Origin: Lachnospiraceae bacterium
GTDB taxonomy: Bacteria; Bacillota; Clostridia; Lachnospirales; Lachnospiraceae
DNA length: 64,000 bases
Assembly (NCBI GenBank): GCA_017613435.1
Contig: JAGADU010000078.1
Location: 1,725-65,724, forward strand
Direction of reading: 5' to 3'
The notes beneath the pieces are model-generated. The model was not told the origin of the DNA and did no database searches. It saw only the letters and a program-made list of their open reading frames with translations. This document shows, one piece after another, positions 1-26,226 of this stretch. Both the position numbers and the translations under genes were made by a program. How positions within the stretch are numbered: the first letter of the stretch is position 1; the number at the start of each line of letters is the position of its first letter.

Positions 1-67
1 CCGAAAATGCCTATTTACCTATGTTTTCGGTAGGTTTTTGTTTCGCTCTTCACGAGCCTCGGATTAC

Positions 68-962: not shown

Positions 963-990
963 TTGAACGAATTTTGACTCGGAGACAATT

Positions 991-2277: not shown

Positions 2278-2286
2278 AGGTTTATT

Positions 2287-2610: not shown

Positions 2611-3326
2611 TTCCGCTTCATTACGATCTGCATATTCATTCCTGTCTGTCTCCGTGCGGCGATAACGAATCCACGCCCGGAAACATTGTCGGAATGTCCG
2701 TAATCAAAAATCTCAACGTAATCGCTCTCACCGACCACAATACGTGCAAAAACTGCGCCGCAGCGATGGCCATCGGAAAGGAATACGGAATTACCGTAAT
2801 CCCGGGGATGGAACTGACGACAAGCGAAGAAGTTCACGTTCTCTGTCTTTTTCACACCATCGAGGACGCCATGGGCTTTGATGCGTATGTCGAACCGCGC
2901 ATTTTACAGATTCCAAACGATCCGAAAGCTTTCGGGGATCAGTTATTATGCAACGAAGACGATGAAGTAATCGGAACTTTTCCCACGCTTTTGATTTCGG
3001 CAACCGATATCTCCTTTGACAGAGTTGACGATGTCATAAAACCTTTTAACGGCGTAATGATACCCGCGCATATAGACAAAAACTCTTTTTCGTTAATGTC
3101 CAATCTGGGTTTCGTTCCGCCCGATACGGATTTTAAATGTTTTGAACTGGCAAACATGTCCAATCTTCACAAACTTCAGGAATCCAATCCCTATTTGAAA
3201 AACTGTAATGTCATCACGGATTCCGATGCGCATTACATTGACAGAATAAACGAAGCGGTCAATACTCTTTTCGCCGAATCCGATTCCATCGATGACGTAT
3301 TGGCGGCACTGGTAAGAAAAGTTTAG
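2607..3326 (+). CDS. PHP-domain phosphoesterase
   Basis: DLHIHSCLSPC, ALTDHN, PAHID, SDAH metal-binding motifs; ATGA overlap. Confidence 0.88.
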   Translation: MIPLHYDLHIHSCLSPCGDNESTPGNIVGMSVIKNLNVIALTDHNTCKNCAAAMAIGKEYGITVIPGMELTTSEEVHVLCLFHTIEDAMGFDAYVEPRILQIPNDPKAFGDQLLCNEDDEVIGTFPTLLISATDISFDRVDDVIKPFNGVMIPAHIDKNSFSLMSNLGFVPPDTDFKCFELANMSNLHKLQESNPYLKNCNVITDSDAHYIDRINEAVNTLFAESDSIDDVLAALVRKV

Positions 3327-6596: not shown

Positions 6597-6625
6597 TTCT
6601 ACAAAAGATAAAACTGTGCTATAAT
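6597..6625 (+). promoter_or_regulatory. Putative extended -10 promoter of the TM1266/nitrogenase-like/hyp operon
   Basis: TTCTAC-N17-TATAAT(6620-6625) preceded by TG. Confidence 0.55.
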
Positions 6626-6673: not shown

Positions 6674-6922
6674 ATGGAAACACGCGCTGCCGTTATTGCC
6701 ATAATAGTCAAAGACAACGAGTCGGCCAACGAGATCAATTCTCTTTTGCATGAATACCGCGATATCGTTATCGGGCGAATGGGCATTCCCTACAGAGAAA
6801 AAGGAATCAATATCATAAGCGTTGCGGTTGACGCACCTCAGGATACCGTCTCCACTCTGGCGGGAAAAATCGGAAGAATAAAAGGCGTTACGGCCAAAAC
6901 GGTTTATTCTCCCGTCGAATAA
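6674..6922 (+). CDS. TM1266-family 'iron-only hydrogenase system regulator' (ACT/ferredoxin-like fold)
   Basis: 82 aa; METRAAVIAIIV, INSLLHEY..IVIGRMGIPY, LAGKIGRIKGV family signature. Confidence 0.85.
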   Translation: METRAAVIAIIVKDNESANEINSLLHEYRDIVIGRMGIPYREKGINIISVAVDAPQDTVSTLAGKIGRIKGVTAKTVYSPVE

Positions 6923-6951: not shown

Positions 6952-7045
6952 CTGACGTCGAAACCTGTATGGCAGCTTGAGATGAAAGCGTTTGCAAATA
7001 ATCTTTTTTATGATGCACTCTTTCTATGTCGGAAGGGTGTTTTTT
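6952..7045 (+). promoter_or_regulatory. Putative attenuator / cis-regulatory RNA (terminator plus antiterminator)
   Basis: Terminator stem GCACTCTTTC(7015-7024)/GGAAGGGTGT(7031-7040)+T run; CTGACGTCGAAA(6952-6963) can pair 11/12 (with G:U) with TTTCTATGTCGG(7021-7032). Confidence 0.6.
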
Positions 7046-7114: not shown

Positions 7115-7864
7115 ATGATTAAATTCGCAATTTACGGAAAAGGAGGGATCGGAAAATCCACCCTCTCTTCAAATCTGAGTGCGGCCTTTGTAAAGAAAGG
7201 CTTAAGAGTCATGCAGATAGGGTGCGATCCCAAAGCGGATTCCACTTCTCTTTTGTGTCCGAAAGAAAAAATAACTTCCGTACTCGATCTGGTAAGAAGT
7301 TCTAAACCCTTTACTCTTCAGGACATGGTAAAAGAGAGCGAATCCAAAGTGTTCTGCGTCGAAGCGGGCGGTCCCGTACCCGGGCTCGGATGTGCGGGAA
7401 GAGGCATCATAAACGCACTCGAATCTCTTGAAAACAAGGGCGCATACGATTATTACAAACCGGACGTGGTTATCTACGACGTACTCGGAGACGTCGTCTG
7501 CGGCGGTTTTACGATGCCCATGAGAAAAGGATTTGCGGATAAGGTGTATATTGTGACATCGGGCGAAAAAATGTCCGTATACGCAGCCGCAAATATCGCG
7601 ATGGCAATCGAAAATTTCAAAAAAAGAGATTACGCCAAACTCGGCGGAATTATTTTAAACTGCAGGGGTGTCGAAAACGAACTCGAAAATGTCGAAACCC
7701 TCGTTAATGACTTTAACACCAAGCTTTCGGCCGTAATTCCCAGAAGCCCTCTTTTCGCCGAAGCCGAAGCGAAAGGAAAAACAATTGTTGAACTTTTCCC
7801 CGAAAGCGATGTATGCAAATCCCTTCTGGAACTTGCCGACAGTATTATCGAAGATTTTAAATAA
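7115..7864 (+). CDS. Nitrogenase-like iron protein 1 (NifH/BchL/CfbC family)
   Basis: [45 protein letters not shown]; both [4Fe-4S] Cys present. Confidence 0.92.
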
Positions 7865-7867
7865 AAT

Positions 7868-9214
7868 ATGTTAAAACAGATTTCTTTAAACGAAAACAAA
7901 ATACCCGAAGGCGTCAGAATTTCCGAAATTGATTTTGACAATCCTTTTTACGACGGACTCCATTACAACCCTCCCGCAAGAGGAGTATGGAATATCGTCC
8001 ATACCGGCATGCTCATTCCCGAAGCGCATCAGATATACGTTTGTGCCCAGGGGTGTCTTCGCGGTGTAATTTTAACCGCCGCGGAAATGAATCGCATGGA
8101 AAACATGAGCTGGGTCGCACTTCGCGAAAAGGACATGTGGAACGGCGAAATGGAATCGAGAGTAATCGAGGGCTGTTCACATATCGTGGACGAAATGGAA
8201 AAACACCCCAAATGCATTCTTGTTTATTTAAGCTGCATGCATTTGTTCGAAGGATGCGATTTTAAAGTAATCGCCGCCGAACTTGAAGAAAGATATCCCG
8301 ACATCGACTGGGTTGACTGCTACATGACCCCCACGATGCGAAAAACTTTCGAACCCGATGTCATGATGAAAAAAAGCCTCTATTCTCCGATCAAAAAACT
8401 TGATTGCGACGAAAAATACATCGGTCTTATCGGGTGCGACCGCGCCACGGATAAAACTTCGGAAATTTATTCGCTCTTAAAAGAAGCAGGCTGCAAAATG
8501 TGGGAGATAACCGAATGCAAAACTTACGAAGATTACCTCTCACTCGGAAAGGCTTCTCTTCTTATCTCCTATCTTCCCGTTGTCGGTTACGCTTCGTCCG
8601 ATCTGACCAAGAGACTGGGCATAGCGCATCTTCCGATGGATTTAAGTTACGATAAAGATGAAATAACTGCCAATCTTAATGCTTTTGCATCTTCTTTGGG
8701 TCTTGACGAAAAAACCGTCGAAAAAATTACGGATATAACAAAAAAAGAAGCCGACGACTCCATGAAAAGAGCTTTGGAGACCATCGGCTCTTCTCCCATA
8801 GCAATCGATGCTTCCGCAACACCCAGACCCATCGGTCTCGCATTGCTTTTAACCGAATACGGATTTAACGTTAAGCGCGTATATACGGATGCTTTCAACA
8901 AAAAAGAAAGAAATGCTTTTGAAAAGTTATGTAAACTAAATCCCGACATCGAGATCTATCCTTCCATGGATCCTTTAATGTTAAATGCCGATCTTGAAAC
9001 AAAAATCGGAGAATCCGAATATTTGTGCATCGGACAAAAAAGCGCATATTTTTGCCAGACAGGAAAATTCGTAAACATCATCGAAGGCGGCGGAATGTAC
9101 GGCTTTGACGGAATAAGGCATCTTGGCGAAATGATGACGGATGCATTTTTAAACGAAAAAGATTTGAAATTAACCATATCATACAAAGGATTGGAGTGTG
9201 AAAGCTGCCTATGA
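7868..9214 (+). CDS. Nitrogenase component 1-like oxidoreductase, subunit A1
   Basis: YVCAQGC, YLSCMHLFEGCD, C-terminal GMYGFDGIRHL; follows NifH-like gene. Confidence 0.8.
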   Translation: MLKQISLNENKIPEGVRISEIDFDNPFYDGLHYNPPARGVWNIVHTGMLIPEAHQIYVCAQGCLRGVILTAAEMNRMENMSWVALREKDMWNGEMESRVIEGCSHIVDEMEKHPKCILVYLSCMHLFEGCDFKVIAAELEERYPDIDWVDCYMTPTMRKTFEPDVMMKKSLYSPIKKLDCDEKYIGLIGCDRATDKTSEIYSLLKEAGCKMWEITECKTYEDYLSLGKASLLISYLPVVGYASSDLTKRLGIAHLPMDLSYDKDEITANLNAFASSLGLDEKTVEKITDITKKEADDSMKRALETIGSSPIAIDASATPRPIGLALLLTEYGFNVKRVYTDAFNKKERNAFEKLCKLNPDIEIYPSMDPLMLNADLETKIGESEYLCIGQKSAYFCQTGKFVNIIEGGGMYGFDGIRHLGEMMTDAFLNEKDLKLTISYKGLECESCL

Positions 9215-10347
9215 ATCAGACCGCAAGAATCATTTCGATATATGCCGCGGATACATCGGGCGTTTGCTCCGCTTTGTACGAATACGGCGGAATGACCGTT
9301 ATTCATGATGCGTCCGGCTGCAATTCCACATATACGACCCATGACGAACCCAGATGGTATGACAAAAAGAGCATGATGTTCATTTCGGGTCTTACCGAAA
9401 AAGACGCCGTAATGGGAAACGATGACAAATTCATTGACGACCTTGTTATAGCCGCAAACGAATTAAAACCCGCGTTCATCGCTCTTTGCGCTTCCCCTCT
9501 TCCCGCCATGATAGGAACGGATCTTGATGCCATTGCATATGCGGTTGAAAGCGAAACTGATATTCCGTCTTTTTGCGTAAAAACAAACGGAATGAATTCG
9601 TATATTTACGGAGCCGGGAATGCATTCCTTGATTTGGCCAAAAGGTTTATCGATAAAAACATGTCCCATAAAACGGACAGATTAAAAGTAAATCTTCTCG
9701 GACTGACTCCTCTGGATTTCCCAAAGACCGAATACGTTAATTCCTTAAAATCCTTCATAAAAGAATCCGGAATGGAATTAAACGCTTCAATCGGAATGGA
9801 GACATCGCTTATTGACATACAAAAAATCGCCGATGCCGATGTCAACCTGATTCTTTCTTCGTCGGGAAAACTTCTGGCGGATTATCTTTTCGAAGAATAC
9901 AACATTCCTTTCGTCAAAGGCGTACCCTACGGAATAAAATTCAGCGAACATATTAAAGAATGCCTTTATAAAGCGGGTGCGGAGAAAATCAATATCGATG
10001 CCACAAAATCATTAAGAGAAGAAGGAAGTACCGCAATACTCGGAGAAAGCATTCTCTCCGCTTCTCTTGCAAGTGCCGTTCTTTCGGATTACGGAATCAA
10101 AGCAAATGTTTTGGAGACGGTCGGCGACGGGGATTTCGATGTTTTAAAGCCTTTTGATTTATCCTGCGACGACGAAAAAATACTTGAAGGCGAGCTTGAA
10201 AAATACGAATGCATCATAGGCGATCCTTTGTTTAAACCGATATGCAAAAACAAAAAATTCATCGCACTTCCCCACGAAGCATTCTCGGGAAGGTGTTTTA
10301 CGAAGAACGCACCGAATATGATAAACAGAAAAATAGAAATATTTTAA
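9211..10347 (+). CDS. Nitrogenase component 1-like oxidoreductase, subunit B1
   Basis: [30 protein letters not shown]; ATGA overlap with A1. Confidence 0.8.
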
Positions 10348-10372
10348 AATATTTTTTCAAACGGAGACACAC

Positions 10373-11140
10373 ATGATTAAGATAGCTGTTTACGGAAAAG
10401 GCGGCATAGGCAAATCGACCGTCACTTCCAATCTTTCGGCCGCATTGGCGCATCTTGGAAAAAGAGTCATACAGATAGGCTGCGATCCCAAAGCGGATTC
10501 AACCGCCAATCTTTTATCCGGAAATCCCGTATTTCCCGTTATGAATTACATGAGGGATTTTGACAGGGAACCCGAATCACTTGAAGAAATTTCAAAGGTC
10601 GGATTCGGAAACGTGCTTTGCATCGAAACCGGCGGACCCACTCCGGGACTCGGCTGTGCCGGAAGGGGCATCATTACAACTTTCTCTCTTCTTGAAGAAC
10701 TGAATCTTTTTGAAAAATACAAACCCGACGCCGTTCTGTACGACGTACTCGGAGACGTTGTCTGCGGAGGATTTGCGGCGCCCATAAGAGAAGGTCTCGC
10801 AAGCAAGGTCATAATCGTAACCTCCGGCGAAAAGATGGCTCTTTATGCGGCAAACAACATAAACAGTGCCGTGGAGAATTTCAGGGAAAGAAGTTATGCA
10901 AGCGTAAGGGGAATCGTTTTTAACAGAAGAAATGTTTTAAACGAGGAAGAAAAAGTTTTTGAATTCGCCAAAAGCCGCAATCTCGAAATAATAGCGGATA
11001 TCCCGAGAAGCGATGACATCATCCGTTTCGAAGACGAGGGAAAAACCGTAATCGAGGGCGATCCGACTCTTGACGTGAGCAAACGTTTTCTCGACCTTGC
11101 ATCGCTTCTTATCGAGGAAGACGAAAAAGAAAACAATTAA
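10373..11140 (+). CDS. Nitrogenase-like iron protein 2 (NifH/BchL/CfbC family)
   Basis: [48 protein letters not shown]. Confidence 0.92.
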
Positions 11141-11154
11141 TTAAAGGATTATTA

Positions 11155-12432
11155 ATGAGCAAAGCTTTTTATCAGACAGCCAAAGAAATAATACAAAACG
11201 GATATGATTCTCTGACTGCGGAACAGGTTTCCAATAAGCATTTGATTTACTCGTCTCCCGCAACACTCTCCTTTAACTCGCCCGGAGCCAAAGGATACGG
11301 TGTAAAACGTGCGGGCCTTGCGGTACCCGAATCCGTAATGCTTCTCGTTTCGCCTTCATGCTGCGGAAGAAACACATCGCTTTTTAAAAGTTCGCCGGAA
11401 TATAAAAGCCGTTTCTTTTTCCAGCTTCTTGACGATACCGACATCGTTACCGGCAGACATTTGATGAAAATAAACGATGCATGCGGCGAAATTCTCTCAT
11501 CTCTTGAAAAAAGACCTTCGGCGATAATGATATGCATAACATGCGTTGACGCTCTTCTCGGTACGGATATGGAGCGAATCTGCCGAAAAGTCACAGAAAC
11601 TCATTCAATTCCCTGCGTTGCATGTTATATGTATGCCTTGACGAGGGAAAAAAGGCTCTCTCCCATGGCTTACGTAAGAACAAGCGTATATTCTCTTTTG
11701 GAAAAGCAAAAAAGAGAAAGCAAAGACATGAACATAATGGGATTTTTCTCTCCCTTAAACGATCGAAGCGAGATTTATCCTCTTTTGAAAAATGCGGGAA
11801 TCGAAAACATCAGGGAACTTGCAAGATGCAAAAAATTCGAGGATTACAAAGAGCTTTCGAAGGCGAATTTCAATCTTTTGCTTAATCCGGAAGCCCGGCA
11901 TGCGGCACAGGATATGCAAAAGCGTTTAAACATTCCTTTTATCGAAATGCTAAGGCTCTATAGGATTGACAAAATACACAATCAATATATGCTTTTGGGC
12001 AATGCTCTCGGAATAAATATCGACGATCGAAAATATTACGAAGAAGCCGAAAAAAGAATTGCCGATTTTAAAAACAAATACGGCGAAATCAGATTTGCTG
12101 TCGGCGAAATATTAAACGGCGATGCGATTGAAATCGCATTAATGCTCGCAAAAGAAGGTTTCAGGGTTGAATGCGTTTTCGCAACGATCGGAGAACTTAA
12201 TTACAGATTCCTAAAAACCCTTTCGGAAGTAAGTCCCGAAACAAAAATTTATTCCAATCTGTCTCCGACGATGCTTAATTACGAAAAAGACGATATCGAC
12301 TGTTATATCGGTTCGGACTGTCTCTATTATTTCCCAGACAAACCGGGTATCGAATGGTGTGAAGAAACCGAGCCCTTCGGGTATCGCGGCGTAATCGATT
12401 TGTTTGATGCATTGGATAAAGTATTGAGGTAA
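11155..12432 (+). CDS. Nitrogenase component 1-like oxidoreductase, subunit A2
   Basis: VSPSCCGR, LDDTDIVTG, ITCVDALLGTD, C-terminal PFGYRGV. Confidence 0.8.
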   Translation: MSKAFYQTAKEIIQNGYDSLTAEQVSNKHLIYSSPATLSFNSPGAKGYGVKRAGLAVPESVMLLVSPSCCGRNTSLFKSSPEYKSRFFFQLLDDTDIVTGRHLMKINDACGEILSSLEKRPSAIMICITCVDALLGTDMERICRKVTETHSIPCVACYMYALTREKRLSPMAYVRTSVYSLLEKQKRESKDMNIMGFFSPLNDRSEIYPLLKNAGIENIRELARCKKFEDYKELSKANFNLLLNPEARHAAQDMQKRLNIPFIEMLRLYRIDKIHNQYMLLGNALGINIDDRKYYEEAEKRIADFKNKYGEIRFAVGEILNGDAIEIALMLAKEGFRVECVFATIGELNYRFLKTLSEVSPETKIYSNLSPTMLNYEKDDIDCYIGSDCLYYFPDKPGIEWCEETEPFGYRGVIDLFDALDKVLR

Positions 12433-12436
12433 TTGC

Positions 12437-13480
12437 ATGAAAAAATTCTTGAAATATATGTCTCCTTTTGCACCGGATCAATCGGGCGCATGCGGTGTCT
12501 TTTACGAACTCGGGGGTCTTATCGTAATCTGCGATGCGGGCGGATGCGCGGGTAATATCTGCGGATTCGACGAACCCAGATGGTTTGACAAAAAAAGCGC
12601 CGTCTTCTCTGCGGGATTAAGAGATATGGACGCAATCATGGGAAGGGATGACAAACTGATTGAAAAACTCTCGACGGCATATGAGCAATTAGGCGGAAAT
12701 TTTGCGCTCATCGTTTCAACACCCGTTCCCGCGATTATCGCAACAGATCTTCGTTCTCTTGAGATAATGGGCGAAAAAAAGCTTGGAATCCCCTGCATTG
12801 CACTCGATTCGACCGGAACAAATTATTACGACTCGGGCGAGGAAAAAGCCTGGTTAAGACTTTTTGAGACTTTTGCGAAAGAATCTTTCGAAAAAATCGA
12901 GAAAAAAACAGCAATTATCGGTGCCACTCCGATTGAAACGGGATTTAAAAACGCCGATTCGCTGAAAAAAATGTCGGAAGAATGTGGTTTACATAATGTA
13001 ACAATCTATTCCATGGGAAGTACTCTCGAAGACGTTAAAAAGGCTTCGGAATGCGAAAAAAACATTGTTATATCGCCTGCGGGATTAAAAGCAGCAAATT
13101 TTCTTAAAAACAAATTCGGCATTCCTTATGAAATCTCATATCCTTTTATCCCGAAGGACATTGTCGAAGAGGCAAAAAAATATTCCGGCAAAAACATACT
13201 CATCATTCATTCGCAGTTTGCCGCTAACGAATTAAGAAAAGAAATCGGATGCATAGAGAAAATAAAATGTGCGACGTTTTTCTTGCAGGATAGGGATTAT
13301 TCTCTTCCCGGAGATATTAAATTAAACGGCGAAGACGATCTTTTCGAATCCGTAAAAAACCAAAATTTCGATCTTATTATCGCCGATTCCGATACCCTGC
13401 CCCTTTTAAAAGCGGCGGGCTTTGACAAAGATTTTATCGACTATCCGGAATTTGCGCTATCGGGAAGAATTTTCGATTAA
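12437..13480 (+). CDS. Nitrogenase component 1-like oxidoreductase, subunit B2
   Basis: ICDAGGC, SAGLRDMDAIMG, STPVPAIIATD; clear paralog of 9211-10347. Confidence 0.8.
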   Translation: MKKFLKYMSPFAPDQSGACGVFYELGGLIVICDAGGCAGNICGFDEPRWFDKKSAVFSAGLRDMDAIMGRDDKLIEKLSTAYEQLGGNFALIVSTPVPAIIATDLRSLEIMGEKKLGIPCIALDSTGTNYYDSGEEKAWLRLFETFAKESFEKIEKKTAIIGATPIETGFKNADSLKKMSEECGLHNVTIYSMGSTLEDVKKASECEKNIVISPAGLKAANFLKNKFGIPYEISYPFIPKDIVEEAKKYSGKNILIIHSQFAANELRKEIGCIEKIKCATFFLQDRDYSLPGDIKLNGEDDLFESVKNQNFDLIIADSDTLPLLKAAGFDKDFIDYPEFALSGRIFD

Positions 13481-13510
13481 ATCCGACAAATTATAATTTG
13501 GAGAAACATT

Positions 13511-15889
13511 TTGAAAACATGTGTAATAAGAGTGTACGGTATCGTTCAGGGCGTCGGTTTTCGCCCCTTTGTAAGCCGCACATGTCTTGACAACAATATA
13601 AAAGGGAGTGTGGCAAACAAAGGCTCCTATGTCGAAATTCACGCACAGGGCGAATCGCTTGAACCTCTGTTTGACGCCTTATCCCACAACCCTCCCAAAA
13701 GATCCGTAATCCTCGAAATAATACATACTTTTGAGGATGAGGATGCGTACGATTCTTTTGAAATCATCGAAAGCGAAAAGGAAGAAGGAGACATATTCGT
13801 ATCCCCCGATATCGCCATATGCGAAGAATGCAAAAAGGAATTGTACACGCCGGGCGACAAAAGATATCTGCATCCTTTTATCAATTGCACGAATTGCGGT
13901 CCTAGACTGACCATACTCGATTCAATGCCCTACGATCGCGAAAGAACAAGCATGGGCGAATTCGAAATGTGCGATTATTGCAAAAACGAATACATCTCCC
14001 CCGCTTCAAGAAGATATGACGCGCAACCCGTATGCTGTAACGAATGCGGACCGAGCTTTTATCTTTTTGACAAAGATATTCTTAAAAACCCCGATTATCT
14101 GTCCCGTAAAAAGGACGCCTTATACAATTCGGATTCTTCGTTATCGGATTTTGCGAAAGCAATCGGAAGCGATGCGATAACAAAGGCAAGAGAATCGATA
14201 ATCGAAGGTAAAATAGTTGCAATAAAAGGCATCGGAGGTTTTCATCTTGCATGCGATGCGACAAACGAAGAAGCCGTAGGGCGCCTTCGAATGTTAAAAA
14301 AGAGACCTATGAAACCCTTCGCCGTAATGATGGATTCCCTCGATACGATCAAAACGTATTGCAAAGCAAACGAATCGCAAAAAGAATTGCTTACCGGTCA
14401 TCAAAAACCGATTGTATTGTTAAAAAAGAAGGATGAAAACGATTTGAAAAAACCGCTTGCACCCTCTCTTGCACCGGACAATCCGACACTCGGAGTAATG
14501 CTTCCGTATGCGCCGATTCAGCTTCTTTTGTTCGATTACAACGACAATTTGAATATGCCGCGCGCCCTTGTCATGACTTCCGGAAACGCATCCGGCGCAC
14601 CGATTTGCAGAACGGACGAGGATGCTTTAAACGAGATATCATCCTTTGCGGATTATATTCTTTCCAACAACAGAAAAATACGTTTAAGGTGCGACGATAC
14701 CGTAACGGACTTTTTCGAAGATAAACCCTACATGATAAGAAGGTCCAGAGGATTCGCGCCCCTTCCCGTAATGATTTCATCCAAAAACAAAGGATGTGTT
14801 TTGGCAATCGGCGGTGAATTGAAAAACACTTTCTGCATAGCAAAAGATTCAATGTTCTATCCTTCGGCATATATCGGAGACATGGAAGATTTGCGAAGTG
14901 TCGATGCATTAAAAGCATCAATCGTTCGTATGGAAACGCTTCTTGAAGCAAAGCCATCGCTGATTGTTTGCGACATGCATCCTCTCTATCACACGACCGA
15001 GGTTGCAAAAGGTATAAATCTCCCTCTTTTGACCGTTCAGCACCACTATGCGCATATTCTTTCGTGCATGGCGGAAAACGATTACCTTGATGACGTAATC
15101 GGGGTTTCGTTTGACGGAACGGGCTACGGAGAGGACGGCACGATATGGGGCGGCGAAATATTAAGATGCGGCCTCAAAGATTATGAAAGATTATCTTTTG
15201 TCGCGCCCTTCATACAATCGGGCGGAGATATTTCCGCAAAAGAAGGCTGGCGAATAGCGGCATCGATTTTAAGAGAAATATCCGATGAAGGTTTAAAAAT
15301 CGCACTTAATCTGAAACTTTGCGAGAAAGCCGAATTCGAATTTCTGGCGCAAATGGCCGAGAAGAACATAAACAGCGTTAAATCGACAAGCGCCGGAAGA
15401 CTCTTTGATGCCGTAAGCGCAATCCTTTCGATAAGACGCTCTTCGACTTTCGAAGGCGAAGCCTCGACATCACTCATGTTCGCCGCAATGCGTTTCGAGG
15501 AAAAAAGCAAAGAAAAATCGGTTGATATCTTTTCCGATTTAGAACCGATAAAAGGAAATGTTTTAAATACAAACGAGCTTGTTTTAAGAATAGCCAAAGC
15601 ATATCTTGAAGGCGAAGACAAAGATTTTCTTGCATATGCGTTCCATGATGAGCTCTCTTCGATGATTGCTCTAAAATGCAGTCTTTGTTCCAAGGAAACA
15701 GGCATTAAAACCATCGCTTTAAGCGGCGGCGTATATCAAAACATTCTTCTTTTGAAACTTACAAAAAGAAAGCTGAAAGAATACGGATTGAATGTGATTC
15801 ACCATAACCTCATTCCTCCCAATGACGGGGGAATCGCCCTCGGGCAGGCGCTCTACGGTTTGTCGCATTTAAACGAAGATTTAAATTAG
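13511..15889 (+). CDS. hypF: Carbamoyltransferase HypF
   Basis: Acylphosphatase GIVQGVGFRPFV, two CxxC..CxxC zinc fingers, KGIGGFHL, QHHYAH, DGTGYG, NDGGIALGQ; TTG start with GGAG RBS. Confidence 0.96.
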   Translation: MKTCVIRVYGIVQGVGFRPFVSRTCLDNNIKGSVANKGSYVEIHAQGESLEPLFDALSHNPPKRSVILEIIHTFEDEDAYDSFEIIESEKEEGDIFVSPDIAICEECKKELYTPGDKRYLHPFINCTNCGPRLTILDSMPYDRERTSMGEFEMCDYCKNEYISPASRRYDAQPVCCNECGPSFYLFDKDILKNPDYLSRKKDALYNSDSSLSDFAKAIGSDAITKARESIIEGKIVAIKGIGGFHLACDATNEEAVGRLRMLKKRPMKPFAVMMDSLDTIKTYCKANESQKELLTGHQKPIVLLKKKDENDLKKPLAPSLAPDNPTLGVMLPYAPIQLLLFDYNDNLNMPRALVMTSGNASGAPICRTDEDALNEISSFADYILSNNRKIRLRCDDTVTDFFEDKPYMIRRSRGFAPLPVMISSKNKGCVLAIGGELKNTFCIAKDSMFYPSAYIGDMEDLRSVDALKASIVRMETLLEAKPSLIVCDMHPLYHTTEVAKGINLPLLTVQHHYAHILSCMAENDYLDDVIGVSFDGTGYGEDGTIWGGEILRCGLKDYERLSFVAPFIQSGGDISAKEGWRIAASILREISDEGLKIALNLKLCEKAEFEFLAQMAEKNINSVKSTSAGRLFDAVSAILSIRRSSTFEGEASTSLMFAAMRFEEKSKEKSVDIFSDLEPIKGNVLNTNELVLRIAKAYLEGEDKDFLAYAFHDELSSMIALKCSLCSKETGIKTIALSGGVYQNILLLKLTKRKLKEYGLNVIHHNLIPPNDGGIALGQALYGLSHLNEDLN

Positions 15890-15902
15890 GAGGATTATAA
15901 AT

Positions 15903-16115
15903 ATGTGTGTAGGTTTACCCGCAAGAGTCGTAAGCGTTAATGACGGTACGGCCATTATCGATGCAAACGGCGCAAAAAGAGACGTTCGCGCGGAACTTCT
16001 CGACGATCTCGAACCCGGCGATTACGTAATGGTTCACGCCGGCGTTGCCATCGCAAAAATCAATTCCGATGACGAAAGCGAAGGAAGCGAAGTCATGGGA
16101 CTTTTATCAATTTAA
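15903..16115 (+). CDS. hypC: HypC/HybG/HupF chaperone
   Basis: N-terminal MCVGLP, GDYVMVHAGVAI; AGGAGG RBS. Confidence 0.95.
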   Translation: MCVGLPARVVSVNDGTAIIDANGAKRDVRAELLDDLEPGDYVMVHAGVAIAKINSDDESEGSEVMGLLSI

Positions 16116-16136
16116 TCTTAAGAACGGAAAATAATC

Positions 16137-17183
16137 ATGAACGAAGTAATAGAAAAAGCCAGAGAAATAATTACGGGGTATGACGGTCCGAAAGTCAGAA
16201 TAATGGAAGTCTGCGGTACCCATACCCATGAAATATTCAGACAGGGAATAAGAAGCCTCCTGCCCGAAAACATCGATTTGATCTCGGGTCCGGGTTGTCC
16301 GGTTTGCGTAACGCCCGTCGGATTTATCGATGAAGCGATTTTCCTTGCAACCGAAAAGAACTGCCTTATTACCACTTTCGGAGATCTTATCAAAGTTCCC
16401 GGAACCGAAATGAATCTCGCAAAAGCCAGAGCAAACGGTGCAAAAATCCGTCCCGTTTACTCTCCCGACGATGCGGTTGAACTCGCAAGGGAAAATCCTG
16501 ACGAAGACGTTGTTTTTCTTTCCGTGGGATTCGAAACCACAACTCCTTCATCCTGCCTTGCGGTCAAAAAAGCAAAAGAACTTAATTTAAATAATTTCTC
16601 TATCCTTACCGCCAACAAATCGATGCCAAACGCCTATCTTAAATTAAAAGGAAGCGCCGACGCATTTATATATCCCGGTCATGTAAATGCAATAACCGGT
16701 AATGCGGTATGCAAAAGCCTTAAAGACAAAGGCGTATCCGGAGTTGTTGCGGGCTTTACCGCAACCGAACTTATGAGTGCGCTTGCCGTTACAATCGAAA
16801 TGTTAAAAAAGGGCGAGCCATTCTTTGTAAACTGTTATCCCAGAGTGGTTAAAGACGAAGGAAACCCTGCGGCAATTAAGCTTATGGACGAAGTAATGGA
16901 ACTTTGCGATACCCAGTGGAGAGGGCTTGGAATTATCGAAAAATCCGGTATGAAATTAAAGGAAGAATTTGCCGATTTCGATTCGAGAATAAAATACAAT
17001 ATTCCGGCAATCGAAGGAAAGCCCAATCCCGGATGCAGATGCGGCGAAGTTTTACAGGGTCACTGCAAACCTTCCGACTGCCCCCTTTTCGGAAAAATAT
17101 GCACTCCCCTTCATGCAATAGGAGCATGCATGGTATCCGATGAAGGCGCATGTTCGGCTTATTATCAATACAATCAAATGTAA
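16137..17183 (+). CDS. hypD: Hydrogenase formation protein HypD
   Basis: MEVCGTHT, GPGCPVC, GFETT, PGHV, C-terminal CRCG..CPLFG.ICTP..GACMVSDEGAC. Confidence 0.96.
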   Translation: MNEVIEKAREIITGYDGPKVRIMEVCGTHTHEIFRQGIRSLLPENIDLISGPGCPVCVTPVGFIDEAIFLATEKNCLITTFGDLIKVPGTEMNLAKARANGAKIRPVYSPDDAVELARENPDEDVVFLSVGFETTTPSSCLAVKKAKELNLNNFSILTANKSMPNAYLKLKGSADAFIYPGHVNAITGNAVCKSLKDKGVSGVVAGFTATELMSALAVTIEMLKKGEPFFVNCYPRVVKDEGNPAAIKLMDEVMELCDTQWRGLGIIEKSGMKLKEEFADFDSRIKYNIPAIEGKPNPGCRCGEVLQGHCKPSDCPLFGKICTPLHAIGACMVSDEGACSAYYQYNQM

Positions 17184-17212
17184 GAAGACAAAAATAAGAA
17201 AGGTATAATCAT

Positions 17213-18217
17213 ATGGAAAACATTATCACTTTGGCTCACGGGTCGGGAAGCATTCAGACTTCGGAACTTATCGACAGCATATTCAAATCGAATTTTGACA
17301 ATCCGTATTTAACCGCCGACGATGCTGCCGTTTTATCTCTCGAAGAAGGAAAAATCGCCATGTCCACCGACGGCTTTATAGTTTCTCCTTACGAATTTCC
17401 CGGGGGAAATATCGGAAAGCTCGCCATCTGCGGCAGCGTAAACGATATAGCATGCATGGGAGCAAAACCCAAATACCTTACATGCTCTTACATTATCGAA
17501 GAAGGTTTTCCCGTTGAAGAACTCGAAAAAATCGCAAAATCCATGGGCGAAACCGCAAGAAAAGCCGGAATACTTATTGTTGCGGGAGATACGAAAGTCG
17601 CAGGCAAAGGTCAGGTAGATAAAATATTTATCACTACAACCGCCGTCGGAAATATTGTCGATGGCGTCAATACATCGGGATCTTTCGCAAAACCCGGGGA
17701 TAAAATCATCGTATCGGGCGATATCGGAAGACACGGCTGCACGATTCTTCTTGCAAGAGGAGAATTCAATATAGATGCGGACATAACAAGCGACTGCGCA
17801 CCGTTATGGAGCAATATAGAAGCGGTATTTAACGAAACAAAGGATATTCATGTAATAAGAGATGCGACAAGGGGCGGTGTCGGAACCGTTCTTTACGAAA
17901 TAGCAAAACAAAGTAACGTCGGAATTTCCATAAACCACGAATCGATTCCCATCGATCCCGGTGTAAAGGGAGTATGCTCGATGTTGGGACTTGAACCCCT
18001 GTATCTGGCATGCGAAGGAAGACTCGTATTCTTCGCACCCGCCGAGGTTGCGGATAAAGTATTAAATGCGTTAAGAGCGTGCGAAAATTCAACAAATGCA
18101 GCAATCATCGGAGAAGTTACCGGGGACAATGTCGGAAAAGTAATACTCAATACGGCGGTAGGCGCCAAAACGATTCTCTCCCGTCCGAGCGGAGAACTGC
18201 TTCCGAGAATATGTTAA
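17213..18217 (+). CDS. hypE: Carbamoyl dehydratase HypE
   Basis: LAHGSG, FPGGNIGKLA, RDATRGG, C-terminal PRIC. Confidence 0.96.
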   Translation: MENIITLAHGSGSIQTSELIDSIFKSNFDNPYLTADDAAVLSLEEGKIAMSTDGFIVSPYEFPGGNIGKLAICGSVNDIACMGAKPKYLTCSYIIEEGFPVEELEKIAKSMGETARKAGILIVAGDTKVAGKGQVDKIFITTTAVGNIVDGVNTSGSFAKPGDKIIVSGDIGRHGCTILLARGEFNIDADITSDCAPLWSNIEAVFNETKDIHVIRDATRGGVGTVLYEIAKQSNVGISINHESIPIDPGVKGVCSMLGLEPLYLACEGRLVFFAPAEVADKVLNALRACENSTNAAIIGEVTGDNVGKVILNTAVGAKTILSRPSGELLPRIC

Positions 18218-18223: not shown

Positions 18224-18253
18224 AAAAAACTGTGGTTTAAACCACAGTTTTTT
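18224..18253. terminator. Bidirectional terminator closing the hyp operon
   Basis: Perfect 30-bp palindrome AAAAAACTGTGGTTTAAACCACAGTTTTTT between convergent genes. Confidence 0.8.
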
Positions 18254-18272: not shown

Positions 18273-19481
18273 TTAAAATGTTTCGTCGTTAAGTTCCGAA
18301 TAAACGTTTTTGAATGCATTTTTTTCAATTAATTCAAGCATAACTTTTACAATCTCGGGATCGAATTGTTTGCCCGAACCTTCTCTTAATTCATTTACGA
18401 TTTTTTCGGTCGAAAACGCTTTTCTGTAGCATCTGTCGGAATTCATTGCGTCAAACGAATCGGCTACGCAGATGATTCTGGCCACAAGAGGGATTTTGTG
18501 TCCGGCCAAACCTTCGGGATAACCTGTTCCGTCATATCTTTCGTGATGGTATCTCGCACCCTCCACAATGCTCGGAATCGAACTGAAATCCTTAAGAATC
18601 GTGGCACCGTTCGTGGTATGGGTTTTAATCACATCCATTTCCTCTTTGGTCAGCTTTCCGGGTTTATTCAATATCGCATCGGGAATATTGATTTTACCGA
18701 CATCATGCAAAAGCGCAATATAATAAATATTATCGAGATCTTCCACGTCAAATCCGATTCTCTTGGCAATCTTTCTGGTGTAATAAGCCACACGGATCGA
18801 ATGACCTCTTGTATAAGCATCCTTCGCATCGATGAAATTGGTGAAGGTTTTCATTGACTGGATGATAATCTTTCTGTCGTGTTCCTGTCTTATCTGATAC
18901 TGTTTTTCTTTTAAAGCTATGGCAATATTGAGAATCAGGAAAATCAAAAGAAGAAAGATTATCGCAAACAACAGATACAAAAGCGGATAATCTGTAATCT
19001 TAGCTTCGGGTTTTGCCTTTAATACAAAATTCTCGGGCTGATAATCCCCTTTGGTAAAAAGAATGAATCCGAATGTAATATTACCTTTAGGATCGATATG
19101 ATCGTTAAATCCCTGATCGGGCGTATTTATTATGGTAATGGAGCCGTCTTCGTTCTCGTTGATTGTAATATTCCAGGAATCCGTAATCTTTGCGTCCTCG
19201 GGAAGCGTGAGCGTTACCGACCAGTCAATGACTCTGTTGACGGTGTTGTTGTAAAGCGTCACATCGTATTGTTTCGCATGATATCCGCCTTCTTCCCAGC
19301 CTTTTGAAGCGGGCATCTCTATAAACATTTGTGTATTTGCCTTATCATAAACAAACCCGTTTTGCTCTGTATTTATTTTCGGAACGGAATTAACGAGAAT
19401 AAAAAGATACAAAAAACCTGCAACGGTCAGAAAAACCGTCGCAAGACTGACTATCAAAACTGTTTTTCGGTTGCCTAACAT
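18273..19481 (-). CDS. Membrane-anchored HD-GYP phosphodiesterase with extracellular CBM2-like domain
   Basis: TM - YDVTLYNN..DWSVTLTLP..ITDSWN..ITFGFI - TM - HDVGK, HHERYDGTGYP, ADSFDAM. Confidence 0.85.
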   Translation of the reverse strand: MLGNRKTVLIVSLATVFLTVAGFLYLFILVNSVPKINTEQNGFVYDKANTQMFIEMPASKGWEEGGYHAKQYDVTLYNNTVNRVIDWSVTLTLPEDAKITDSWNITINENEDGSITIINTPDQGFNDHIDPKGNITFGFILFTKGDYQPENFVLKAKPEAKITDYPLLYLLFAIIFLLLIFLILNIAIALKEKQYQIRQEHDRKIIIQSMKTFTNFIDAKDAYTRGHSIRVAYYTRKIAKRIGFDVEDLDNIYYIALLHDVGKINIPDAILNKPGKLTKEEMDVIKTHTTNGATILKDFSSIPSIVEGARYHHERYDGTGYPEGLAGHKIPLVARIICVADSFDAMNSDRCYRKAFSTEKIVNELREGSGKQFDPEIVKVMLELIEKNAFKNVYSELNDETF

Positions 19482-21101: not shown

Positions 21102-22679
21102 TTACCTGTTCTTCGGATTGAATTTTTTGTATTCTTTCGCAAGCATCGAAATTTCCTTTTTCATCGCATGATTCCGTCTGTTTTCCTCACCGAGATTTTT
21201 GAAAAGTTCATACCTCTTTCTTGATAATTTTCCGCTTTCGATCGCTTCCTTAATCGCACATCCGGGTTCGCTTTCATGCCTGCAGTTGCTGAATTTGCAA
21301 TATCTTTCAAGTTCCCTTATATCCGAAAAAGTATTGTCGATGCCATCCTCATTCTCTGCCATTCCGACTTCCCTCATGCCGGGAGTATCGATAACGCATA
21401 CCCCGTTTTTAAGTACAATCATCTGTCTGTGGGTCGTTGTATGCCTGCCTTTCGAATCGTCCTCTCTTATTTCGGAAGTCTTCATAATCTCTTCTTTTGC
21501 AATCGCATTTATAAGTGTGGATTTGCCGGCGCCGGACGAGCCCATGAGGCATATCGTATTGCCCGGCTCAAAATATTCTTCGAGTTCGTCAAGCCCGATA
21601 TCGAGTATCGCGGATACCGCATGGACTCTTATCTTTTCGGAAATCGTTTCTACTTCGCTTACATATCTTCCGACATTGTTGCAAAGATCAGATTTCGTCA
21701 GAATAACAACGGGAATGCTGTTTCCTTCAAATGCAATGCTTGCATATCTTGCTATTCGGTTAAAGCTGTAATCGTCGTTTAACGAAGTCACTATAAAAGT
21801 ATAATCCGCATTTGCGACCATGTACTGCATCACAGCCGTTTTTGCCTGATCCGGTCTTTTAAGGGTGCTTGTCCTCTCGCATACCGAAAGAATGGTTGAA
21901 TCCCCCGTACGATTGTAAAGAAAAGTCACATAATCGCCTACAAGGGGGTAATTCTTTTGAGCATCTTCGTAAAAACTTCCTTTGAGTTTGGCCCTTAATT
22001 CTTCTTCGAAAAATCTGATTTTAAAACTGTTTTTCCTGACTTCGCATATTCTTCCGAGCCTCTCTTTGTGAAGCCATTGCGCCGATAGTTTAAGAGGTTT
22101 GTAATACGGAAAATTCTTCGTATATTCTCTTATTTCTTCCTCATCTTCGCATTCCGCGAATACGGGTGACTCAAAAAAAGTTCCGTGTATTTCCTCAAAG
22201 CTTTCGTTTAAAGGATATGCCATAAAAGCATCCGAATTGCCGAAATCCGGATGAATTATTCCGAACAAATCGCAGGTTTTAAAGCCGAGTCTCGGGTAAT
22301 AACCGGGCTCTCCGCATATGACGATTCCGCTGTACCCCTCCTCCCTCGAAAGTTTAATCAATTCCTCGGTCAGAGCTTTGCCCACTCCCATCGAAAAACA
22401 ACTCGGTTCGACGGCAAGCGGTCCGAAAGTCAATACTTCGTGTTCTTTTTCATTATCGACTACCTTTGCTTTTGATGCAAAAATCGCACCTGCAATCTTT
22501 CCGTCGATCTCCGCCACCCTGCTTAATTCGGGGAGGTAGTCCGGGCTTTCCCTCAATTTATGCACCAATAAATGTTCGTTGCATCCCGGGTCGTGAATAT
22601 TCCAGAATGCTCTTAAAACCATATGTTCGGTATTGTAATAATCTTCTTTGTTTTCTTTTCTTAAAAAAATATTGTTCAA
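21102..22679 (-). CDS. rsgA: GNAT acetyltransferase fused to RsgA-family ribosome small-subunit GTPase
   Basis: TTG start behind AAAGGAG; N-half FGPLAVEP..MGVGKAL, GEPGYYPRLGF; C-half TKSDL, GSSGAGKSTLIN, GRHTTT, DTPGMRE, CKFSNCRHESEPGC. Confidence 0.88.
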   Translation of the reverse strand: MNNIFLRKENKEDYYNTEHMVLRAFWNIHDPGCNEHLLVHKLRESPDYLPELSRVAEIDGKIAGAIFASKAKVVDNEKEHEVLTFGPLAVEPSCFSMGVGKALTEELIKLSREEGYSGIVICGEPGYYPRLGFKTCDLFGIIHPDFGNSDAFMAYPLNESFEEIHGTFFESPVFAECEDEEEIREYTKNFPYYKPLKLSAQWLHKERLGRICEVRKNSFKIRFFEEELRAKLKGSFYEDAQKNYPLVGDYVTFLYNRTGDSTILSVCERTSTLKRPDQAKTAVMQYMVANADYTFIVTSLNDDYSFNRIARYASIAFEGNSIPVVILTKSDLCNNVGRYVSEVETISEKIRVHAVSAILDIGLDELEEYFEPGNTICLMGSSGAGKSTLINAIAKEEIMKTSEIREDDSKGRHTTTHRQMIVLKNGVCVIDTPGMREVGMAENEDGIDNTFSDIRELERYCKFSNCRHESEPGCAIKEAIESGKLSRKRYELFKNLGEENRRNHAMKKEISMLAKEYKKFNPKNR

Positions 22680-22714
22680 TGTCTTTTTCTCCTTTGAATA
22701 AATGCACGGGCAAT

Positions 22715-22806
22715 AAAAAAAGCCCTTCAACAAACAGTGTTCATTGTACAAAGGCCTCAAAAAACATATATTAAATAAAAAAACCGCGACTTCTTATGCC
22801 ACGGTT
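22715..22806 (-). terminator. Two tandem terminator-like hairpins in the rsgA 5' leader
   Basis: Minus strand: AACCGTGGC/GTCGCGGTT+T run (22777-22806) and AGGCCTTT/AAGGGCTT+T run (22715-22758). Confidence 0.6.
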
Positions 22807-24247: not shown

Positions 24248-24733
24248 TTATAATTCTTTTTCGTAACAAAAGAAATCCTGCTCGTACATATGAATCTCTC
24301 CGACATTTTTGTAACCGAAAGAATCATAGAGCCGAACCGCTTTTAAATTATAACGGTTCACCAGAATATGAATGCCCTTAAAGCCTCTTTTTCTTAATTC
24401 GTCGTCAATGTATTTAAGCATGATTTTTGCAATGCCCCTGCCCTGCATTTCGGGAAGAACCGCAATTCTCGCAAATTCCGCTTCGGGTTCCAGCTCTTTG
24501 TTCCAAAAAGGAAGTTTGTTGACTTCCTCGTCCTCTTCTATCGAAACCGCGCCTGCGATTTTCCCCTCTGTTTTAAGAACGAAAAGCGCGTTTCTCGACA
24601 AATCGAAATTAATCGTAAAATCCGAAGGATATTCTTCGCTCCAGGGGCATCCTTCGCGACCTAACTGCGCATGATACAAATCAAGCAGTTCTTTTCTGTC
24701 TCCTTCTTTGGCGAGACATATTTCGTAATCCAT
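24248..24733 (-). CDS. GNAT N-acetyltransferase
   Basis: RIAVLPEMQGRGIA, NLKAVRLYDSFGY. Confidence 0.85.
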   Translation of the reverse strand: MDYEICLAKEGDRKELLDLYHAQLGREGCPWSEEYPSDFTINFDLSRNALFVLKTEGKIAGAVSIEEDEEVNKLPFWNKELEPEAEFARIAVLPEMQGRGIAKIMLKYIDDELRKRGFKGIHILVNRYNLKAVRLYDSFGYKNVGEIHMYEQDFFCYEKEL

Positions 24734-24747
24734 AATCTACCTCTGTT

Positions 24748-25200
24748 TTATTTGAATTTATACTGCATGAAATTTCCGTTTTTCTCAAATCCGAAATCGG
24801 TATAAAGCAGCACTCCCATATCCGATGCGGTAATCTGCACCGAGCCGCATCCGTAATTTTTCGCTTCCTCAACCACCCTTGACAAAAGTTCTTTCGCGAT
24901 TCCCATTCTTCTGTAGGAAGGGTCCGTAAACATACTCGACAAAAGACCTATTCTTCCTGTCGGGCAGCTGAAATAAGGCGGTTTTTCGACAAATGACATA
25001 CCGCTTGTTCCGACTATTTTATCCCCGTCCATGGCAAGCCACGAAACAAATGTTTTGTCGGACAAATGACGATTGTAATAATCCTTCAGTGCGGGAACAA
25101 TATCTATGTCTTCCTTGGCGCCTTCTTCTCTAAGCTGTTTTATTCTCATGTCGATAAAAGTATCAAGATCTTCTTTTGTAAGTTTGCGATAATTAATCAT
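24748..25200 (-). CDS. GNAT N-acetyltransferase
   Basis: SMFTDPSYRRMGIA, LLYTDFGF. Confidence 0.85.
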   Translation of the reverse strand: MINYRKLTKEDLDTFIDMRIKQLREEGAKEDIDIVPALKDYYNRHLSDKTFVSWLAMDGDKIVGTSGMSFVEKPPYFSCPTGRIGLLSSMFTDPSYRRMGIAKELLSRVVEEAKNYGCGSVQITASDMGVLLYTDFGFEKNGNFMQYKFK

Positions 25201-25210
25201 TTTGGCCTCC

Positions 25211-25687
25211 TTACTGCAATTTAAGACGCATGTCTTTGTATTTTTGCTTTCTGTCTTCGAATCCTGTCTTTTTGTATATGGGATATCCTTCGTCGGTTGC
25301 GCAAAGGTCTATTCGACAGATTTTGTTTTCCTTTGCATATTCAATCATATTTTTGATAAGTGTCGAACAAATACCCCTTCCCCTGAATTCTTCCTCGGTA
25401 TATACGCTTAAAACCTCGGAATCAAAGCCGTTTGGCAAAAAAGGATTCGCCGGTTTTTCGATTATAAGCAAATATGCGGCGGCAATCAGCTTATCGCCCT
25501 TTCTTGCGACAAAAGCAATAAGTTCCTTTCCGAGTCTTCTTTTAAAATAATCCGGAAGCTGCTCTTCCATGCATTTTCTTTCGTAATCCGTAATGCTTTT
25601 GAAATCATCAATCATATATGCGATTCTAAGCCTTACAAGTTCGTTTATGTCATTGATGTTTGCCGTATCAAAAATAATTTCTTCCAT
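25211..25687 (-). CDS. GNAT N-acetyltransferase
   Basis: SVYTEEEFRGRGIC, PIYKKTGF. Confidence 0.85.
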   Translation of the reverse strand: MEEIIFDTANINDINELVRLRIAYMIDDFKSITDYERKCMEEQLPDYFKRRLGKELIAFVARKGDKLIAAAYLLIIEKPANPFLPNGFDSEVLSVYTEEEFRGRGICSTLIKNMIEYAKENKICRIDLCATDEGYPIYKKTGFEDRKQKYKDMRLKLQ

Positions 25688-25710
25688 GGAAAAACCTCAC
25701 AAAAACATTT

Positions 25711-26226
25711 TTACGTTTCATCTTTGTTTATAACGGAAACGTGAGTAAATCCGTTCGCCTCGTCGGGATATTCTTTTTCAAAATGCATTCCTATCGCTTC
25801 GGCGGTTTTATATGACGCTTCATTTGTATATTTGCAATAAGAATAAAGCGAGTGATAATCCGTATTTTCAAAAGCCCAGTCTCTTACTGCGGCGGCCGCT
25901 TCCTTGGCATAACCCTTTCTTTGACAGTCGCGTCGTATATGGTAACCGATTTCCGGAAGCATTTCGCCTTCTATGTTTTGCAGCGTCAGACCGCAGTCTC
26001 CGATCATTTCGTCATTCGATTTAAGACATACCGCCCATAAACCGAAGCCGTCTCTCTCATATCTTTTCATGTTTCGCTCAATCCAGTCCATGACGCGTTT
26101 TTCGTCAAAAACATAGGGATAATGCTTCATGATTTCTTCATCAGCCAATACCGCATAAAGAGCTTCGAAATCATCCGTATTCATTTCGCGAAGATACAGT
26201 CTTTTTGTTTCGATTATCTTTATCAC
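25711..26226 (-). CDS. RimJ/RimL-type GNAT acetyltransferase
   Basis: ETKRLYLR, EIGYHIRRDCQRKGYAKEA, NEASYKTAEAIGM. Confidence 0.85.
   Translation of the reverse strand: MIKIIETKRLYLREMNTDDFEALYAVLADEEIMKHYPYVFDEKRVMDWIERNMKRYERDGFGLWAVCLKSNDEMIGDCGLTLQNIEGEMLPEIGYHIRRDCQRKGYAKEAAAAVRDWAFENTDYHSLYSYCKYTNEASYKTAEAIGMHFEKEYPDEANGFTHVSVINKDET

Follow-up and report, generated by a model that had tools for sequence, protein, structure and literature searches.

In the canonical HydEFG system of [FeFe] hydrogenase maturation, HydG, a radical S-adenosylmethionine tyrosine lyase with a C-terminal cluster domain, is the source of the Fe(CO)2(CN) unit. To our knowledge, HydE, HydF and HydG are regarded as universally required for biosynthesis of the H-cluster, and tyrosine as the sole source of its CO and cyanide ligands. 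The HypCDEF branch of [NiFe] hydrogenase maturation produces Fe(CN)2CO from carbamoyl phosphate, which HypF and HypE turn into a thiocyanate on HypE, and the iron carried by HypC and HypD is then cyanated. A three-gene layout of an ATPase/reductase (H) and two further subunits (A and B) is found in NifH/NifDK, NifH/NifEN, the dark-operative protochlorophyllide oxidoreductase (DPOR) BchLNB, CfbCD and methylthio-alkane reductase, and nitrogenase Fe proteins reduce CO2 to CO. Here, we analyzed an operon of 11 genes in a 64-kb stretch of DNA (hereafter the window; G000:C57:1725-65724) from a metagenome-assembled genome (MAG) of a rumen Lachnospiraceae bacterium (G000; 2.1 Mb, 84.5% complete). The operon encodes a TM1266 regulator, two NifH/D/K-like sets (modules 1 and 2) and HypFCDE, and is probably an undescribed route to the CO- and cyanide-bearing iron of iron-only hydrogenases.

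The locus resembles each of these systems in part. With the canonical HydEFG system it shares the same proposed client (group-A HydA), HydE and HydF equivalogs, clustering with hydE and hydF, and the TM1266 regulator, which is typical of hydEFG loci and heads the window operon. In contrast to that system, genomes carrying the operon (carriers) have, in the place of HydG, ten genes from two other metallocofactor lineages. All four proteins of the HypCDEF branch and their motifs are shared with the [NiFe] system; however, a large subunit that could accept the iron is lacking, no HypA or HypB scored above cut-off in the six genomes tested, and the window-type HypD belongs to a separate clade whose hyp genes are always joined to nitrogenase-like genes. 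The two modules have the H-A-B layout, and the likeness to nitrogenase extends to a P-loop NifH-like protein with two cluster cysteines, a component-1 fold for A2, and paired modules reminiscent of NifDK plus NifEN. Their cysteine patterns nevertheless differ from the ligands of the P-cluster and the iron-molybdenum cofactor and, unlike those of other nitrogenase-like reductases, their gene partners are hydrogenase maturases rather than nif, bch or cfb genes.

Loci of this kind have been touched on before. Dos Santos et al. 2012 (BMC Genomics 13:162, PMC3464626) devote a single sentence to two closely linked NifHEN-like copies near hydrogenase maturation genes in Lachnospiraceae; this is almost certainly the same locus type, and the paper is silent on which maturases are involved, on the missing [NiFe] hydrogenase and on the missing HydG. 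Di Leonardo et al. 2022 (PMC9431212) reported HypCDEF without HypAB, as well as an unidentified HydG, in some Clostridium acetogens and did not connect the two points. Our literature searches found no paper joining nitrogenase-like proteins with HypD, HypF or hypCDEF; judged by title and abstract, papers that combine HydG with nitrogenase-like proteins, or NifH with the pair HydE and HydF, looked unrelated.

Ten of the operon's genes, from H1 to hypE, are tightly packed on the plus strand (7115-18217), with gaps of 3-30 nt or overlaps, and the TM1266 gene ends 192 nt before H1 with a terminator-like hairpin inside that gap. A single terminator, 3' of hypE, serves the whole unit. The features are as follows:

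6598-6625: promoter-like site upstream of the TM1266 gene (pattern scan).
6674-6922, plus strand: first gene, TM1266-family putative regulator of the "iron-only hydrogenase system" (82 aa; NCBIfam TIGR03959 equivalog, 114 bits, cut-off 60.8).
7015-7040, plus strand: terminator-like hairpin between the TM1266 gene and H1, a possible attenuator (pattern scan).
7115-7864, plus strand: H1, NifH-like ATPase/reductase of module 1 (Pfam Fer4_NifH, 285 bits; Cys93 and Cys129 invariant).
7868-9214, plus strand: A1, NifD/E-like subunit of module 1 (Pfam Oxidored_nitro, 70 bits; C59, C63, C123, C151 and C444 conserved).
9211-10347, plus strand: B1, NifK/N-like subunit of module 1 (Pfam Oxidored_nitro, 102 bits; H32, C37 and H44 conserved).
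10373-11140, plus strand: H2, NifH-like ATPase/reductase of module 2 (Pfam Fer4_NifH, 287 bits; Cys95 and Cys131 invariant).
11155-12432, plus strand: A2, NifD/E-like subunit of module 2 (Pfam Oxidored_nitro; C69, C70, C127, C130 and C225 invariant, C143 93% conserved).
12437-13480, plus strand: B2, NifK/N-like subunit of module 2 (Pfam Oxidored_nitro; C37 and C42 conserved).
13511-15889, plus strand: hypF, carbamoyltransferase (792 aa; Pfam, motifs, NCBIfam).
15903-16115, plus strand: hypC, iron-carrying chaperone with an N-terminal Cys2 (70 aa; Pfam, motifs).
16137-17183, plus strand: hypD, [4Fe-4S] scaffold of the clade linked to nitrogenase-like genes (348 aa; Pfam, tree, motifs, NCBIfam).
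17213-18217, plus strand: hypE, dehydratase carrying thiocyanate on its C-terminal PRIC cysteine (334 aa; Pfam, motifs).
18224-18253, unstranded: bidirectional terminator with a 13-bp stem that closes the operon (pattern scan).

An Rfam scan of the operon region matched no family. A scan with HypD recovered 21 loci from Lachnospiraceae of the rumen (isolates G41 and LC2019 among them), and the order H1A1B1-H2A2B2-hypFCDE was the same in every one of these loci that was sufficiently long.

The hyp genes had been described as intact in the initial annotation of this DNA, and direct reading of every catalytic motif, in agreement with Pfam and NCBIfam, bears this out. HypF has all five Pfam domains (acylphosphatase, two zinc fingers, YrdC-like and Kae1-like), reaches 729 bits against the TIGR00143 equivalog model (cut-off 466) and keeps both CxxC...CxxC zinc fingers between C104 and C179, with CxxC pairs at 104/126 and 154/176. 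HypC matches Pfam HupF_HypC, begins with MCVGLP and keeps the conserved histidine (VHAG). HypD (Pfam HypD, 442 bits; TIGR00075, 398 bits with a cut-off of 193) presents CGTH at 26, GPGCPVC at 51, GFETT at 131, PGHV at 180 and the C-terminal cysteine cluster, while HypE (Pfam AIRS/AIRS_C) terminates in PRIC.

The initial annotation also stated that the nickel half of the pathway and any client hydrogenase are absent from the 64 kb. For [NiFe] chemistry this is correct, as the rest of the window encodes no HypA, HypB, HycI-type protease, [NiFe] subunit or nickel transporter; for [FeFe] hydrogenases it is not, as a weak [FeFe]-hydrogenase-like gene of the sensor type lies at 991-2277. The absence extends beyond the window. 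Whole-genome profile searches of its own MAG returned no [NiFe] large subunit (PF00374, PF00346), small subunit (PF01058) or HycI-type protease (PF01750), and no HypA or HypB above cut-off. Five relatives, among them the isolates Lachnospiraceae bacterium G41 and LC2019, likewise lacked PF00374, PF00346, HypA and HypB; the protease was searched for in the window's own genome only. Identical searches did recover [NiFe] and hyp genes in control genomes.

A family-wide sample of one genome per genus (250 genera, plus G000; 251 genomes) separated two kinds of Hyp set. HypD scored above cut-off in 38 of these genomes and a [NiFe] large subunit, mostly Ech-type, was present in 24. A strong A2 orthologue was found in 18 genera, all of which have HypD; the two genes lie ~5 kb apart on the same contig in 15 of them and on separate contigs in G055, G130 and G179. 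The [NiFe] large subunit is missing from 16 of these 18 carrier genera (15 of the 17 besides our own), and most of these other carrier genomes are 96-100% complete, one being a closed genome. HypA above cut-off was found in 2/15 sampled cluster genera lacking the large subunit versus 19/20 Ech-type genomes. The idea that a hydrogenase had merely been missed in an incomplete MAG was rejected on the basis of the isolates, the closed genome and the 250-genus search. The two carriers that do have a large subunit, G097 and G118, each encode two HypD proteins, whose genes neighbor A2 and the Ech large subunit, respectively. Identity to the window HypD is bimodal: Ech-linked copies show 39-45%, those linked to nitrogenase-like genes 57-92%. 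A tree that included 110 representatives from a library of 1.8 billion proteins joined all 39 nitrogenase-like-linked copies in a single clade (Shimodaira-Hasegawa-like support 100), the stem of which (0.52) is the longest inner branch; the only further members of this clade are two library representatives. The whole-genome searches for [NiFe] and hypAB genes and the separation from Ech-linked HypD answer the two checks raised with the initial annotation, and both support its proposal of a nickel-independent client. Clade-specific catalytic changes in the Hyp proteins were looked for and not found: fixed differences number 1 in HypD, 3 in HypC, 7 in HypF and 11 in HypE, none of them in known motifs.

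Carriers have the [FeFe] maturation genes except for HydG. HydE and HydF scored above cut-off in 23/23 carrier genomes (in our own, HydE at G000:C36 with 580 bits and HydF at G000:C111 with 563 bits), nearly all of which also encode a HydA of 570-610 aa with an H-cluster domain of 280-350 bits, whereas HydG reached the TIGR03955 cut-off in 0/23. We considered a divergent HydG in carriers and rejected it: the best matches (~180-210 bits), checked in G247 and G002, are ThiH equivalogs located beside thiE and lacking the C-terminal domain, and seven carriers have not even ThiH-type matches to the HydG model. Across the sample, HydG is present in 114/251 genomes, full-length and mostly above 800 bits, with no carrier among them (the other genera number 233). 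HydF is found in 140 sampled genomes, 112 of which also have HydG. The remaining 28 genomes with HydF and no HydG comprise 18 with this operon, 6 with a variant containing only module 1 and 4 that are unexplained, the last consisting of one with a truncated HydF, one that is 69% complete and two of good quality (G176 and G237). In a HydF tree the proteins from HydG-type and cluster-type genomes interleave, with well-supported branches forcing at least six changes, which indicates that the swap between HydG and the cluster happened repeatedly and that HydF is not specialised in carriers; no specialised carrier HydF lineage was found. In G161, a 100%-complete species of the window's own genus, hydG-hydF is present, with neither a Hyp nor a nitrogenase-like cluster. 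A stricter rule, that every HydA genome has either HydG or the cluster, was discarded, as 69 sampled genera with strong HydA have neither. Nine of ten tested genomes of this kind also lack HydE and HydF, and the informative variable is HydF or HydE, not HydA.

Gene order ties the cluster to the same maturases. In at least eight genomes hydE and/or hydF adjoin the cluster (G040, G055, G064, G097, G099, G118, G145 and locus L019), and many genomes have the hyp genes flanked by both nitrogenase-like modules. The arrangement H2A2B2-hypFCDE-TM1266-(H1)A1B1-hydF-hydE occurs in G064, G145 and G097, and up to hydF in G040; L019 reads hydE-H1A1B1-H2A2B2-hypFCDE, G118 reads TM1266-hydE-A1B1-H2A2B2-hypFCDE, and in G099 hydE follows immediately after hypFCDE. 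The TM1266 gene lies inside or beside the cluster in other genera too. Module 2 never occurs without hypFCDE in the sample. Module 1 does so in a second architecture (variant B) of seven HydG-less genera (G013, G059, G157, G171, G177, G220 and G233; loci including L076 at G013:C2:12000-31000, L079, L081, L082, L083 and L085), which lacks Hyp, module 2 and HydG alike. The genes run TM1266, FecCD permease, ATP-binding cassette (ABC) ATPase, hydE, H1A1B1, Peripla_BP_2 binding protein and hydF, with the ABC ATPase sometimes fused to a TM1266 domain. The contents of the variants thus pair module 1 with hydE and hydF, and module 2 with hypFCDE.

Three further observations concern these architectures. 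An importer of the iron-chelate/cobalamin type occupies the place of module 2 and hypFCDE in variant B. An A2 frame of ~770-810 aa with no separate B2 is present at L041:3754-6192 (G099) and L035:12616-14919 (G039), which suggests an A2-B2 fusion in these two genomes. Gene order in G039 is scrambled (H2, A2B2, HypF, C, D, A1, HypE).

The presence of HydE, HydF and HydA, the absence of HydG, the adjoining hydE and hydF genes and the TM1266 gene at the head of the operon all suggest that the final client lies in [FeFe] maturation, beyond the nitrogenase-like proteins themselves. The reading that we favor, with moderate confidence, is that the operon works with HydE and HydF to mature the H-cluster of [FeFe] hydrogenase, replacing the missing HydG and serving a nickel-independent client. 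We infer every chemical step of such a replacement, as follows. Judging by their intact motifs and the established chemistry of their families, HypF and HypE would convert carbamoyl phosphate into thiocyanate on the terminal cysteine of HypE, and the cyanide would pass to iron held by HypC and HypD, which would also gain CO. The ATP-driven H-A-B modules, to go by their context, might then receive and remodel the iron unit; the closest analogy would have them supply low-potential electrons and a NifEN-like scaffold, and they could conceivably adjust the ratio of CO to cyanide, for example by reducing CO2 to CO. Gene content and linkage suggest that the product would move on from HydE to HydF and finally to HydA.

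Several points weigh against this reading. HypCD makes Fe(CN)2(CO), whereas HydG makes Fe(CO)2(CN)(Cys), so that an extra source of CO or a ligand exchange must be assumed, and employing ten genes for one is unparsimonious. The module-1-only variant manages without Hyp, which means that Hyp cannot be the sole possible ligand source. G176 and G237 (97-98% complete) have HydF with no HydG and no homologue of the nitrogenase-like B1, and are thus exceptions to an either/or rule, perhaps representing a third solution. Roughly 62 of the 168 sampled genera with strong HydA (PF02906, ~265-350 bits) have neither HydF nor HydG (examples are G014, G029, G106, G110, G134, G137 and G156, and most of those tested are 97-100% complete), which makes maturase content only a loose predictor in the Lachnospiraceae sample. 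The co-occurrence counts, including a naive Fisher test of cluster versus HydG (p = 2e-5), take no account of phylogeny. Finally, our own genome is just 84% complete, and HypA is encoded by two carriers with no [NiFe] large subunit, in full length by G214 (G214:C66:9499-9837) and partially by G140 (G140:C62:869-1105).

The strongest alternative concerns the nitrogenase-like proteins, which are distant from all characterized relatives. H1 and H2 keep the two [4Fe-4S] cysteines yet score below all curated NifH, CfbC, BchL and BchX cut-offs: 299 (H1) and 298 bits with the nifH model (cut-off 394), 299 (H1) and 286 bits with CfbC (cut-off 402), and 182 and 197 bits with BchL (cut-off 345). A1 has no NCBIfam match, and A2, B1 and B2 match NifE, NifD and BchB weakly, with 25-69 bits for the nifE, nifD and nifK models (cut-offs 427-654) and 70 for BchB (cut-off 490). 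All scores therefore fall short of the curated cut-offs for nitrogenase proper and NifEN, and no curated model or close similarity places the proteins in CfbCD, DPOR (BchLNB), chlorophyllide oxidoreductase (BchXYZ) or methylthio-alkane reductase. Among solved structures, A2 is nearest in sequence to a nitrogenase alpha chain (9p1x, E 8e-9) and to NifE, and both matches are weak. The AlphaFold model of this subunit (predicted local distance difference test score 83) adopts the nitrogenase component-1 fold, matching NifK, NifD, AnfK, NifEN, a methylthio-alkane reductase chain and BchB with template modeling (TM) scores of 0.62-0.72 at 12-17% identity; as a guide to the closest family the structure does not discriminate, the six matches being about equal. 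Each subunit keeps a handful of invariant Cys and His residues. The H, A and B proteins constitute a separate, uncharacterised branch within the nitrogenase superfamily.

Such proteins could themselves be the final client, with HypFCDE, perhaps aided by HydE and HydF, building a CO- and cyanide-bearing iron cofactor that stays in the A/B protein, a possibility implicit in the initial annotation. The result would be a new ATP-driven enzyme, such as a hydrogenase or small-molecule reductase, and loss of HydG would be a side effect of lineage or lifestyle. Consistent with this, every carrier has its Hyp genes physically joined to nitrogenase-like genes, the invariant Cys and His residues of the A and B subunits are fit for metal clusters, and two full H-A-B sets recall the pairing of catalyst and scaffold in NifDK/NifEN. 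It leaves unexplained, however, why HydG-less genomes keep HydE and HydF almost solely when the cluster is present, why hydE, hydF and TM1266 are interleaved with the cluster and why no carrier keeps HydG, and it would deprive the ordinary HydA genes of carriers of any source of CO and cyanide. We consider it unlikely, though a serious contender.

Replacement of HydG by the operon could also be set in a wider frame, as a modular system within a hydrogenase cofactor-precursor economy of gut and rumen communities. Module 2 and HypFCDE would then be a self-sufficient supply of a CO/CN-iron synthon made from carbamoyl phosphate and CO2, with module 1 acting as the core from which the synthon passes to HydE and HydF. 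The siderophore/cobalamin-type ABC importer of variant B would mean that an organometallic or iron precursor is taken up ready-made from neighbors, and the ~62 HydA genera with no HydF or HydG would be wholly dependent on exogenous precursors. That all four parts hold jointly strikes us as quite unlikely.

A different possibility is that HypF and HypE provide cyanide or a thiocarboxamide for another product, whether a small molecule or a different cofactor, and that the link to hydrogenases is indirect. HypE/HypF chemistry is in principle separable from hydrogenases, and the substrates of nitrogenase-like families are diverse and mostly unknown (PMC3464626). HypC and HypD, however, are always co-conserved, with intact motifs and very few clade-specific changes, which favors complete Fe(CN)x(CO) chemistry, and linkage to hydE, hydF and TM1266 likewise speaks against this possibility. 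We regard this explanation as improbable.

It is very improbable that these are ordinary [NiFe] maturation genes whose hydrogenase, hypAB and protease either fall within the 16% of the MAG that was not assembled or have diverged beyond recognition. The genome is indeed only 84.5% complete, hyp genes are often scattered and two carriers have HypA; yet five relatives (two of them cultured isolates) and 15 of the 17 other carrier genera have no large subunit, Ech genomes possess a second HypD of another clade beside Ech, and the same searches did find the genes in controls. A decaying or silent remnant, suggested by the absence of the usual partners and nothing further, is scarcely credible for an operon with all motifs intact that is kept across at least 18 genera with HypD identities of 57-92% and conserved gene order and tight spacing.

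Evidence for a nearby HydA comes from the left edge of the window. In isolate G41, a regulatory block syntenic with the start of the window is preceded, in divergent orientation, by genes for HydA (585 aa, PF02906 331 bits) and for NuoF-like and NuoE-like proteins. In our own genome, contig C94 carries at its end the last 95 residues of HydA, with 99% identity to G41 HydA. By synteny with G41, hydCBA (NuoE-like, NuoF-like, HydA) lies in a gap of ~3 kb in the assembly and in the initial 1.7 kb of C57, just left of the window and ~12 kb from H1. The remaining features of the window are:

2-3326, plus strand: regulatory block of DRTGG, HATPase (HATPase_c_2), sensor-type protein, DRTGG and PHP (Pfam, synteny with G41).
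991-2277: sensor-type protein of 428 aa with Fe_hyd_lg_C and PF04060 FeS domains and a weak H-domain score.
18273-19481, minus strand: HD-GYP gene, convergent with hypE, with a CBM_2-like segment (Pfam E 2.8e-7).
21102-22760, minus strand: in-frame fusion of a GNAT domain with an RsgA GTPase.
24248-26226, minus strand: run of four separate GNAT acetyltransferase genes.
34251-37016, minus strand: protein of 921 aa, TIR domain at the N terminus, numerous Sel1/TPR repeats.

If HydG is replaced as proposed, the operon would represent a second natural route to the H-cluster and a new biosynthetic logic for organometallic iron, in which cyanide comes from carbamoyl phosphate via Hyp and is combined with ATP-driven nitrogenase-like reductases. 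It would, for the first time, assign a function to a large, uncharacterised group within the nitrogenase superfamily and link the iron-cofactor assembly lines of nitrogenase, [NiFe] hydrogenase and [FeFe] hydrogenase. A possible application would be heterologous production of [FeFe] hydrogenases with a tool set that does not depend on tyrosine. Cultured carriers, namely isolates G41 and LC2019 and Coprococcus catus GD/7 (PMC3464626), make the hypothesis directly testable. The bacteria concerned are the H2-producing Lachnospiraceae of the rumen and gut, which feed methanogens, and in the carriers among them this would be the way in which the hydrogenase obtains its active-site iron.

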